A stretch of DNA of 55,727 nucleotides, counting the filler, from Diploschistes diacapsis (lineage: Eukaryota): assembly GCA_023645945.1 (NCBI GenBank). It is 5 parts of 5 records of this genome, joined end to end, with 100 filler letters (N's around TTAATTAATTAA, not from the genome) between each part and the next. Parts side by side here need not be neighbours in the genome. Positions count along the whole stretch, not along the records: positions 33,564 to 44,599 come from JALAIB010000863.1; 4 more parts are not named here. One strand, 5' to 3'. Shown piece after piece: positions 11,114 to 44,699 of this stretch. The notes under the pieces were generated by a model. It worked only from the letters and a program-made list of their open reading frames with translations. It was not told the origin of the DNA and did not search any database. Numbering within the stretch: the stretch's first letter is position 1; each line of letters starts with the position of its first letter. The translations under genes were made by a program, and so were the position numbers.

Positions 11114-11213
11114 NNNNNNNNNNNNNNNNNNNNNNNNNNNNNNNNNNNNNNNNNNNNTTAATTAATTAANNNNNNNNNNNNNNNNNNNNNNNNNNNNNNN
11201 NNNNNNNNNNNNN
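11114..11213. other. Artificial contig-joining spacer (N44-TTAATTAATTAA-N44)
   Basis: 100 bp of N around a 12-mer with stops in all six frames; the same spacer occurs four times. Confidence 0.98.
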
Positions 11214-22304: not shown

Positions 22305-22404
22305 NNNNNNNNNNNNNNNNNNNNNNNNNNNNNNNNNNNNNNNNNNNNTTAATTAATTAANNNNNNNNNNNNNNNNNNNNNNNNNNNNNNNNNNNNNNNN
22401 NNNN
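22305..22404. other. Artificial contig-joining spacer
   Basis: N-TTAATTAATTAA-N, 100 bp. Confidence 0.98.
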
Positions 22405-33463: not shown

Positions 33464-33563
33464 NNNNNNNNNNNNNNNNNNNNNNNNNNNNNNNNNNNNN
33501 NNNNNNNTTAATTAATTAANNNNNNNNNNNNNNNNNNNNNNNNNNNNNNNNNNNNNNNNNNNN
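33464..33563. other. Artificial contig-joining spacer
   Basis: N-TTAATTAATTAA-N, 100 bp. Confidence 0.98.
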
Positions 33564-34117: not shown

Positions 34118-34986
34118 CTACTCAACCTTGCTATCAAACGTCTCCCCCGGAACCAGGTCAGGGATGTCGTCATCGTCGTCGTCCTCCTTCTTCTCGCCCC
34201 CCTCGCCGCCCTCCTTCTTCTGCATCGCCTGGTAGCTCTCGGCGAGCTTGCGCAGCTGGTTCAGCGAGTCCGGGCCCAGCTGGTTGAGGATGCCGGGGAC
34301 CAGCTCGGTGAGCTCCTTGTCCTCGCCGTTGCCGTAGATGGCGAAGGTATTGGAGGGGACGGAGGCGTGGACTGTGGGGTGTAGGGAAGAGCGCGTCAGC
34401 GGGGTATAGTGAGAAGAGTGCGGGATGGGAAACGAGAAGGCTGGAAGGAAGGCGTGAAGGGGCTACTGAGTCAAGGGCAGAAGACGAGGCGCAAGGGCGA
34501 TGGGGTTGTTTAAGGGTGCAGGTTTTGCCAATTGGAATACGTACCTTTTGGAGCAGCGAAATGAATGACGTTCCCGTCCTCCTTGAACATGTTCACCTCC
34601 TCAATGGCCTGGATGGGCTGCACATTGAGTTTCTTGAGCGAGGTCTGGAGCTTCTTGTCGTCGGTGCCGGAGCTCTTGTGGACCTTCTTGACCTTTCGTC
34701 GCGGCGTACCCTTGCCACTTCACAGTCGACATGTCAGCTTGCTCGAGATTAGAGGCTTTGTGGCTCGGCGGTTTCTTTGGCGTAGCGTGTCTGGGGTACA
34801 TTGGGGAGCTTGGCTTACCCTGGGCACCACGATGGTTAGTTGTATATCCCAATGCAAGCAATCGGACAATTACGGGCCAGTGAGTAAGTAATGTAAAAGC
34901 AGCGAAGCCATGTAAGGTCTACAGGAGTGGATTGACTCACCAATTCGCACCGACTGCTGCAGCTTAGCTAGCTTTGCTTGATCCAT
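34118..34986 (-). CDS. EGD1: Nascent polypeptide-associated complex subunit beta (BTF3), with a predicted 1-nt exon
   Basis: Exons 34986-34941, 34819, 34717-34545, 34371-34118 give [101 protein letters not shown]. Confidence 0.95.
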
Positions 34987-35832
34987 GATTGCGGTCGAAG
35001 TTGTTCGTTACGCAACGGACGCTCAACGGAGAAGGATGGCTTACGAGTGCTGCGAGAAGACTGCAGGAGCTTGGTCTTGAATTTGGTGGTGAAGCAGACC
35101 GGAGATTTTATCGGTCCGCTCGCGGACCTAAGCGAGGGGTCTACACCACAATTATAAAAGACTTGAAGAGCAGCTGGTGATTGCTACCAATTAATAGCCT
35201 CCCTATGCTGCTAGGATTTGATATTCGCGAACTTGGGGGAGAAACGTGGTGGCATGCTTCAGAGCTTTGCGAAAAGGGGGTCCTTGTAATGAGTTTTGGC
35301 TCCAAGTTGCTACCTCTGTAGCTTTCTCGTCTTGTCTTGACAATGTCGCGGTACTACAGTGGCAACTACAACAAGCGTCTTTCCAATAAACAAAGTTAAA
35401 ACACGAGGGAGTCCTCAACTATCTTAGGTCTATTTTAATAGTTGGCTTGAAACATCATTCGAGACTTTATAGAGGGTGTAAAGCGGTAGAAGGAGTCCTT
35501 ATGTGCCAACTATCAGTCCAATCGATTTGGCTGGTTGTCACAGTTGGCTCCGTGTCTGGTCATGGAGTATATTATGATCGATCGTTTTGATTGATTGACT
35601 GATCATATTGGCAAAACTCTCTCTTAGCTGCCTGTGCTGGGGATGCTACTAATTATCCTGGATACTGAGACCACCTTTGGGGACGACCAAAACCAAGGAT
35701 TCTCCTGGATGCTATGCGGTATGAACTCCCGGGGCTTTCCTTGTGCGCTCCTGTATATTCAACGGCCCCAACTTCAATGCATCATTGCCCTAAGATTTTC
35801 GGCTCAAATAAGGCGACAGAGGATGGTATTAT

Positions 35833-44599: not shown

Positions 44600-44699
44600 N
44601 NNNNNNNNNNNNNNNNNNNNNNNNNNNNNNNNNNNNNNNNNNNTTAATTAATTAANNNNNNNNNNNNNNNNNNNNNNNNNNNNNNNNNNNNNNNNNNNN
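44600..44699. other. Artificial contig-joining spacer
   Basis: N-TTAATTAATTAA-N, 100 bp. Confidence 0.98.

Follow-up and report, generated by a model that had tools for sequence, protein, structure and literature searches.

The window, by which we mean the whole 55,727-nt (55.7-kb) stretch of Diploschistes diacapsis DNA that was analysed, carries on its minus strand the NAC-beta (EGD1/BTF3) gene, a housekeeping gene for a ribosome-associated chaperone subunit. In exon 2, the NAC domain of Pfam (PF01849) is recognised with an E value of 3.5e-15 and 56.1 bits (cut-off 21.3), and the exon shares 95-100% identity with the best 120 database proteins; 60 of these have been named by NCBI, mostly as NAC-beta, and the named NAC-beta matches come from lichen-forming and other ascomycetes. 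When exons 2 and 3 are taken together, the best named matches are those of Lecanoromycetes (92.4%), and the organism was treated in the analysis simply as an ascomycete that forms lichens or is associated with them. The NAC domain and the orthology to named NAC-beta proteins, taken together, identify the predicted product as NAC-beta. The parts of the gene are collected in Table 1.

Table 1. Parts of the NAC-beta gene, in window positions
Feature	Positions	Strand	Basis
Start codon ATG of NAC-beta (EGD1/BTF3)	34986-34984	-	window read and scripted exon joining
Exon 1, coding part, from ATG to ATT G, ending in phase 1	34941..34986	-	peptide M-D-x-x-K-L...V-R-I conserved in relatives
Intron A (upstream), 121 nt, GTGAGT ... 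CTAAC-N12-CAG	34820..34940	-	homologous intron in 76/76 genomic loci
Intron A donor GTGAGT	34940-34935	-	
Putative branch motif CTAAC of intron A; branch A at 34836, 16 nt from the intron 3' end	34835..34839	-	
Intron A acceptor CAG, 12 nt after CTAAC	34822-34820	-	
Predicted one-nucleotide exon G, middle base of GGT, the first Gly of I-G-G-K-G	34819..34819	-	frame restoration and invariant YAG/G/GT core
Intron B (downstream), 101 nt, GTAAGC ... CTGAC-N12-AAG	34718..34818	-	
Intron B donor GTAAGC	34818-34813	-	
Putative branch motif CTGAC of intron B; branch A at 34734, 16 nt from the intron 3' end	34733..34737	-	
Intron B acceptor AAG, 12 nt after CTGAC	34720-34718	-	
Exon 2, T GGC AAG GGT ..., coding for GKGTPRRK and the beginning of the NAC domain	34545..34717	-	Pfam match and relatives
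Intron C, 173 nt, GT-AG	34372..34544	-	borders matched by a spliced contig of another species
Exon 3, coding part, to the stop codon TAG at 34120-34118	34118..34371	-	

A preliminary description of this DNA had proposed that a single G, flanked by two introns with a CTRAC motif each, bridges exons 1 and 2. Its coordinates, its motifs and its intron lengths (121 and 101 nt) are exact on the minus strand. Both introns that flank the G combine a GTRAGY donor and a YAG or AAG acceptor with a CTRAC of their own, CTAAC in one and CTGAC in the other, with its A at a distance of 16 nt from the 3' end. The interval between exons 1 and 2 contains exactly one AGGGT. The effect on the reading frame was also as had been described. 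When 34941 is joined straight to 34717, the frame shifts and meets a stop after 56 codons, which, as derived from the exon joining, places the stop of a G-skipped transcript 48 nt ahead of the next exon junction. With G34819 in place, the junction becomes ATT GGT GGC AAG and the exons, joined by script, give an open NAC-beta frame of 157 codons that is intact to the conserved C-terminus. The locus and its relatives (see below) present what is expected of a one-base exon, namely neighbouring exons that are one base out of phase, a directly adjoining AG and GT in consensus context, complete introns of plausible length on both sides and conservation amid drift.

If the G is ignored, the apparent frameshift might be ascribed to a decaying copy of the gene, to translational frameshifting or to a downstream start. 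Nothing beyond that frameshift speaks for these possibilities, and it is difficult to see how they would accommodate an exon 1 peptide and an I-G-G-K-G junction that are conserved across relatives, or a frame that runs intact to the C-terminus once the G is counted. A downstream start would also need a methionine, and the first in the 57 residues of exon 2 comes no earlier than residue 43. We give this group of explanations almost no weight.

Elsewhere in the window, four pairs of 44-base N blocks (11114-11213, 22305-22404, 33464-33563 and 44600-44699), spaced about 11.15 kb apart, look like masking rather than like assembly gaps.

The exon junction in relatives and in public gene models

Relatives of the gene were sought by scanning metagenome contigs with an alignment of exon 2 and 29 relatives, and the best 80 of 375 confirmed matches were kept. 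These 80 loci comprise 76 genomic loci and four spliced, cDNA-like contigs (L016, L017, L037 and L041). No cDNA and genomic pair from the same species is present among the 80 loci, in which the best identity is 92.5%. The preliminary description had suggested that relatives be aligned in search of a conserved internal YAG-G-GT, and that element recurs in every genomic locus: with slashes for exon borders, the layout ATH G/GT...YAG/G/GT...YAG/N GGN AAR is present in 76 of 76 (75 recognised by pattern and one, L064, by eye).

These loci bear directly on the possibility that the assembly simply lacks a base at one of the exon ends, in which case the real gene would have one ordinary intron of 223 nt. 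Such an error would be a problem of a single base only, and the window does come from a metagenome-type assembly. However, the same out-of-phase exon ends are found in all 76 genomic loci, which belong to many separate assemblies, and a 1,355-nt DNA contig of a close relative, obtained in another run (X2) and covering 34357-35066 in one piece, has no listed indel at 34935-34945 or at 34715-34720. A missing base, which the preliminary description had named as a possible source of error, is thus not indicated, and we consider its probability negligible.

Within the interval, the X2 contig is listed as differing by a substitution (34741), an insertion (behind 34738) and a deletion (34757); no change is listed at the exon ends, at the internal site or in CTGAC, in a table from which two of the 11 counted substitutions are absent. 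In the 5' flank or leader (window 35083), 14 bases are inserted in the X2 relative, and the contig match ends at 35066. In the DNA of a more distant relative (run X4), 269 letters lie between the part that matches exon 2 and the part that matches exon 1.

What do the transcripts of relatives look like at this junction? All four spliced contigs from the metagenome scan, which come from other species, read ATH GGN GGN AAR (I-G-G-K) without interruption. Runs X5 and X8 contain further spliced contigs, again from other species, that give R-I-G-G-K-G across the junction, and the letters upstream of 34716, read by hand in five groups of contigs from these runs, encode ...V-R-I-G followed by G-K-G. 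These contigs show that the mRNAs of relatives carry the GGN codon, and for the organism of the window they provide evidence by homology. One spliced contig of another species from run X5 also joins 34371 to 34545 exactly, with CT..AC ends on the plus strand, and so confirms by homology the predicted borders of intron C.

The public gene models tell a different story. The best 120 database proteins were sorted by their reading of the junction, with 60 NCBI-named models and 60 unnamed proteins counted separately (Table 2).

Table 2. Reading of the exon 1-exon 2 junction in the best 120 database proteins
Reading	NCBI-named	Unnamed
RIGGKG	4	21
One residue added	10	0
One residue missing	6	0
3-10 residues inserted	12	0
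>10 residues inserted	19	4
Exon-1 peptide lacking	9	35

The expectation that gene finders would miss the one-base exon is borne out by the small number of named models, only 4 of the 60, that read RIGGKG; the other 56 are wrong at the junction. Contigs of roughly 1-1.6 kb are the source of several of the 21 unnamed RIGGKG proteins. The result is a concrete and recurrent annotation error, affecting 56 of 60 named public models at one codon, and some of these models carry a translated intron in a protein that is used for phylogenomics. The aberrant named models span Lecanoromycetes, Eurotiomycetes, Dothideomycetes, Orbiliomycetes and Pezizomycetes (class was checked for five species). This spread suggests that the one-base-exon layout may be shared across the subphylum, the named species being represented here by their protein models.

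Taken at face value, these models could point to some other small exon, or to alternative splice sites, that would add or drop a residue and give RIG-x-GKG, RI-GKG or long inserts. Ten of the 60 named models have one extra residue, six have one fewer and 31 have inserts of at least three residues. Nevertheless, which residue is added (E, T, H, N, D, K or I) depends on the species, as would be expected of ad hoc fixes by gene predictors, and RIGGKG without an extra residue is read in 4/4 spliced contigs, in 21/60 unnamed proteins and in the X5 and X8 contigs. We judge real products of this kind to be highly improbable.

Internal splice signals across diverged lineages

The spliced sequence leaves one further explanation to be weighed. 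The interval could be a single, non-canonical intron of 222 nt that is cut one base off, with the internal AG-G-GT unused. The cut would be shifted either at the donor (+1), giving ATT GG/TGAGT...AAG/T, or at the acceptor (-1), giving ATT G/GT...GAA/GT GGC. Because the G/GT at the end of exon 1 and the AG/N at the end of the last intron are present in every locus, a slip of one base at either end would give an identical mRNA in every species, and the spliced contigs of relatives are compatible with both readings. Reads across the junction with ATT GGT GGC AAG, which had been put forward as a check on the one-base exon, would by themselves not separate it from an intron cut one base off. The readings are separated instead by the conservation of an internal acceptor, donor and branch motif, which would be useless to a single intron shifted by one base.

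Conservation was assessed in the 60 distinct intervals contributed by the window and the 75 loci found by pattern. Grouping at 70% interval identity gave 35 groups, each represented by one interval (the window included), and the median interval identity between groups is 0.57. Despite this drift, the Y at -3, the A and G of the internal acceptor, the retained G, and the G and T of the internal donor are invariant in 35/35 representatives. Donor position +3 is A in 34 of them and position +5 is G in 30. The third base of the Gly codon varies (A in 15 representatives, T in 10, C in 9 and G in 1). In 34/35 representatives a YTRAY precedes the internal AG by 8-30 nt, and one precedes the final AG in 34/35 as well. 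Where an interval contains two AGGGT, only one of them has a branch motif before it and a consensus donor after it.

Three control figures can be set beside these counts: YTRAY occurs at 6.6% of control positions in the same intervals, AGGGT is present in about 15% of mononucleotide-shuffled intervals, and AGGGT is found in 0/48 different sequences of intron C, the neighbouring intron (5,441 nt together), but the 35 lineages are of common ancestry and neither the shuffle figure nor the other control figures should be read as probabilities. The upstream intron measures 63-487 nt (median 100) and the downstream intron 82-190 nt (median 131) in the 35 representatives, and the neighbouring intron C has a median of 97 nt.

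With a single shifted intron, a highly conserved housekeeping gene would have to be spliced at TG-AG or GT-AA ends. Such an intron would leave unexplained why the internal YAG/G/GT is invariant in all of the diverged representatives, why a branch motif precedes it so much more often than at the control positions, and why the pentamer is absent from the neighbouring introns; each half of the interval, moreover, has the size of an ordinary neighbouring intron. We therefore regard the shifted single intron as very unlikely. There is strong comparative evidence that a second acceptor-donor pair has kept its splice signals amid the drift of the sequence around it. Together with the anatomy of the locus, this evidence supports the central claim of the preliminary description, that a one-nucleotide exon lies between two complete introns: G34819 is, with high probability, a constitutive exon of NAC-beta.

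Several other features of the relatives deserve mention. In intron C, the count of AGGGT is zero against about five expected (1 per 1,024), which may reflect avoidance of cryptic acceptor-donor pairs. In locus L064 (positions 250-590), exon 1 is itself split by an extra GT-AG intron after ...AAG TTG GCT C, and the one-base exon is kept downstream, as CTAAC-N8-CAG/G/GTAAGC. In L001, L002 and L004, the upstream intron has expanded to 475-487 nt (the median being 100) next to a downstream intron of 82 nt, with the one-base exon intact. An origin of the two introns by tandem duplication found no support: introns A and B are dissimilar in their interiors, with a median z of 0.05 and a maximum of 2.6 across the 35 representatives. 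When the lineages were compared with named proteins by blastx, the hits were mixed, the protein being too conserved for calls at the level of class.

Proposed splicing mechanism and relation to known one-base exons

How might a single base be retained between two introns? Intron definition is established for short fungal introns. The best explanation is that the G is flanked by two U2-type GT-AG introns (A and B in Table 1), each of which would be recognised as a unit through its own donor, branch motif and acceptor. With both introns gone, the retained G would stand at the centre of the codon for the first Gly in I-G-G-K-G (ATT G + G + T GGC). Because the acceptor of intron A and the donor of intron B lie within a few bases of each other, they cannot be occupied by splicing factors at the same time, which makes sequential removal of the two introns, as supposed in the preliminary description, the most likely course. 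Perhaps the upstream intron leaves first, co-transcriptionally; we lean modestly towards this order over the reverse. Upstream-first removal would be akin to recursive splicing, apart from the one base that stays in the message. The reverse order would be equally feasible chemically, and the mRNA would be identical either way. If the first donor were instead joined to the last acceptor, the G would be skipped and the product would presumably be useless or degraded, perhaps through the sensitivity to NMD that the preliminary description had suggested.

A close parallel comes from Fusarium, where Nelson and Syed (2026, PMC12940212) describe a one-nucleotide exon in CYP621A that is shared by 20 orthologues and has the core AG/G/GT. 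Like the NAC-beta G, it is a fungal exon that provides the middle base of a Gly codon within a motif (PKG in that case, IGGKG here), its flanking exons are one base out of phase, and the public models are wrong. Both cases rest on aligned orthologues together with spliced sequence, although the Fusarium reads are SRA data from the same species, whereas the NAC-beta contigs come from other species. The genes themselves are very different: CYP621A is a rarely expressed P450 restricted to Fusarium, while NAC-beta encodes a housekeeping chaperone subunit and the exon is found in 35 diverged lineages. Nelson and Syed also propose how such exons arise, with a cryptic intronic AGGGT rescuing the loss of one base at an exon border (PMC12940212). 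An origin of this kind would fit the NAC-beta G.

A long-read annotation of Coprinopsis cinerea counts 13 one-nucleotide exons, each in a different gene (PMC12230235). That annotation predates the claim of a first fungal case made in the Fusarium paper (PMC12230235, PMC12940212). As in the NAC-beta case the organism is a fungus, and the long-read support for its 1-nt exons indicates that fungal spliceosomes can handle them. Unlike the organisms considered here, however, C. cinerea is a basidiomycete, and its 13 genes are not named in the text of PMC12230235. NAC is not mentioned in the five supplementary files that were searched.

Outside the fungi, Guo and Liu (2015, PMC4674806) described an exon of a single nucleotide in APC11 of Arabidopsis. 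When its base was altered (A>T, A>G or A>TT), the alteration was recovered in the cDNA, and removing the base shifted the frame. Like the NAC-beta G, this exon is constitutive, lies between two GT-AG introns, is essential for the frame and was mis-annotated in GenBank. It differs in being from a plant, in consisting of an A, and in having been proven by mutation, whereas the case for the NAC-beta G is built on sequence. Deep conservation of the APC11 exon is not shown, as the paralogues in rice have no introns. The view of one-base exons as very rare, expressed in the preliminary description, holds to the extent that they form a very small class, but APC11, the one example given there, is no longer the sole described case (PMC12940212, PMC12230235).

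Two other kinds of unusual fungal introns invite comparison. Recursive splicing at a zero-nucleotide exon has been demonstrated in BOT1 of C. neoformans (bioRxiv 10.1101/224170, which cites cases from Drosophila and mammals). BOT1 resembles the NAC-beta interval in having an acceptor set against a donor (YAG, then GTAAG). In both, what looks like one long intron is removed, or in NAC-beta would be removed, by two reactions in succession. The difference is that BOT1 retains nothing, while NAC-beta keeps one essential base within a short interval (223 nt). The NAC-beta site is accordingly distinct from a zero-nucleotide recursive splice site, with one G required in the mRNA between the AG and the GT, though the two may work alike.

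The stwintrons, or spliceosomal twin introns, of Pezizomycotina are nested or adjacent U2 introns that are removed consecutively (PMC5587772, PMC5639578). They share with NAC-beta the pairing of U2 introns, and in their [D1,2]/[A2,3] type, too, one base is decisive. In a stwintron, however, the internal intron interrupts the donor, branch or acceptor signal of the external intron and the whole element is excised, whereas in NAC-beta the signals are uninterrupted and a base is kept. The sequence that follows the internal CAG is GGTAAGC, rather than the T... of a [D1,2] donor, and this too sets the NAC-beta interval apart from stwintrons. The passages searched in PMC5587772 and PMC5639578 make no mention of NAC or micro-exons. 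More generally, we found no paper on a one-base exon in NAC-beta in a search that left aside subscription journals, curation notes and the Fusarium supplements.

One-base exons have so far been treated as curiosities, in few reports. For NAC-beta, the sequence observation is confirmed and the reading of the G as a real, conserved one-base exon of a housekeeping gene is supported. The exon would join this known and very small class, and it has been kept while the surrounding introns diverged beyond alignment. It would offer a natural and widely shared substrate with which to ask how the spliceosome recognises an acceptor and a donor without an exon between them, and any relative with this layout that can be grown in culture should be open to such work. 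A much bolder set of propositions is that the exon predates the split of the Pezizomycotina classes, and possibly that of the ascomycete subphyla; that it is the most widely and longest conserved one-nucleotide exon known, and not a frozen accident; that removal follows a fixed, recursive-like order; and that the rate of G skipping tunes the output of NAC-beta. Taken as a whole, we think this set is unlikely to be correct.

The features of the locus also provide a search pattern for more cases, in which exon ends that are out of phase are combined with an internal YAG-N-GT that has its own branch motif. The extended core YAGGGTAAGY has a single occurrence on both strands of the window, at the one-base exon.
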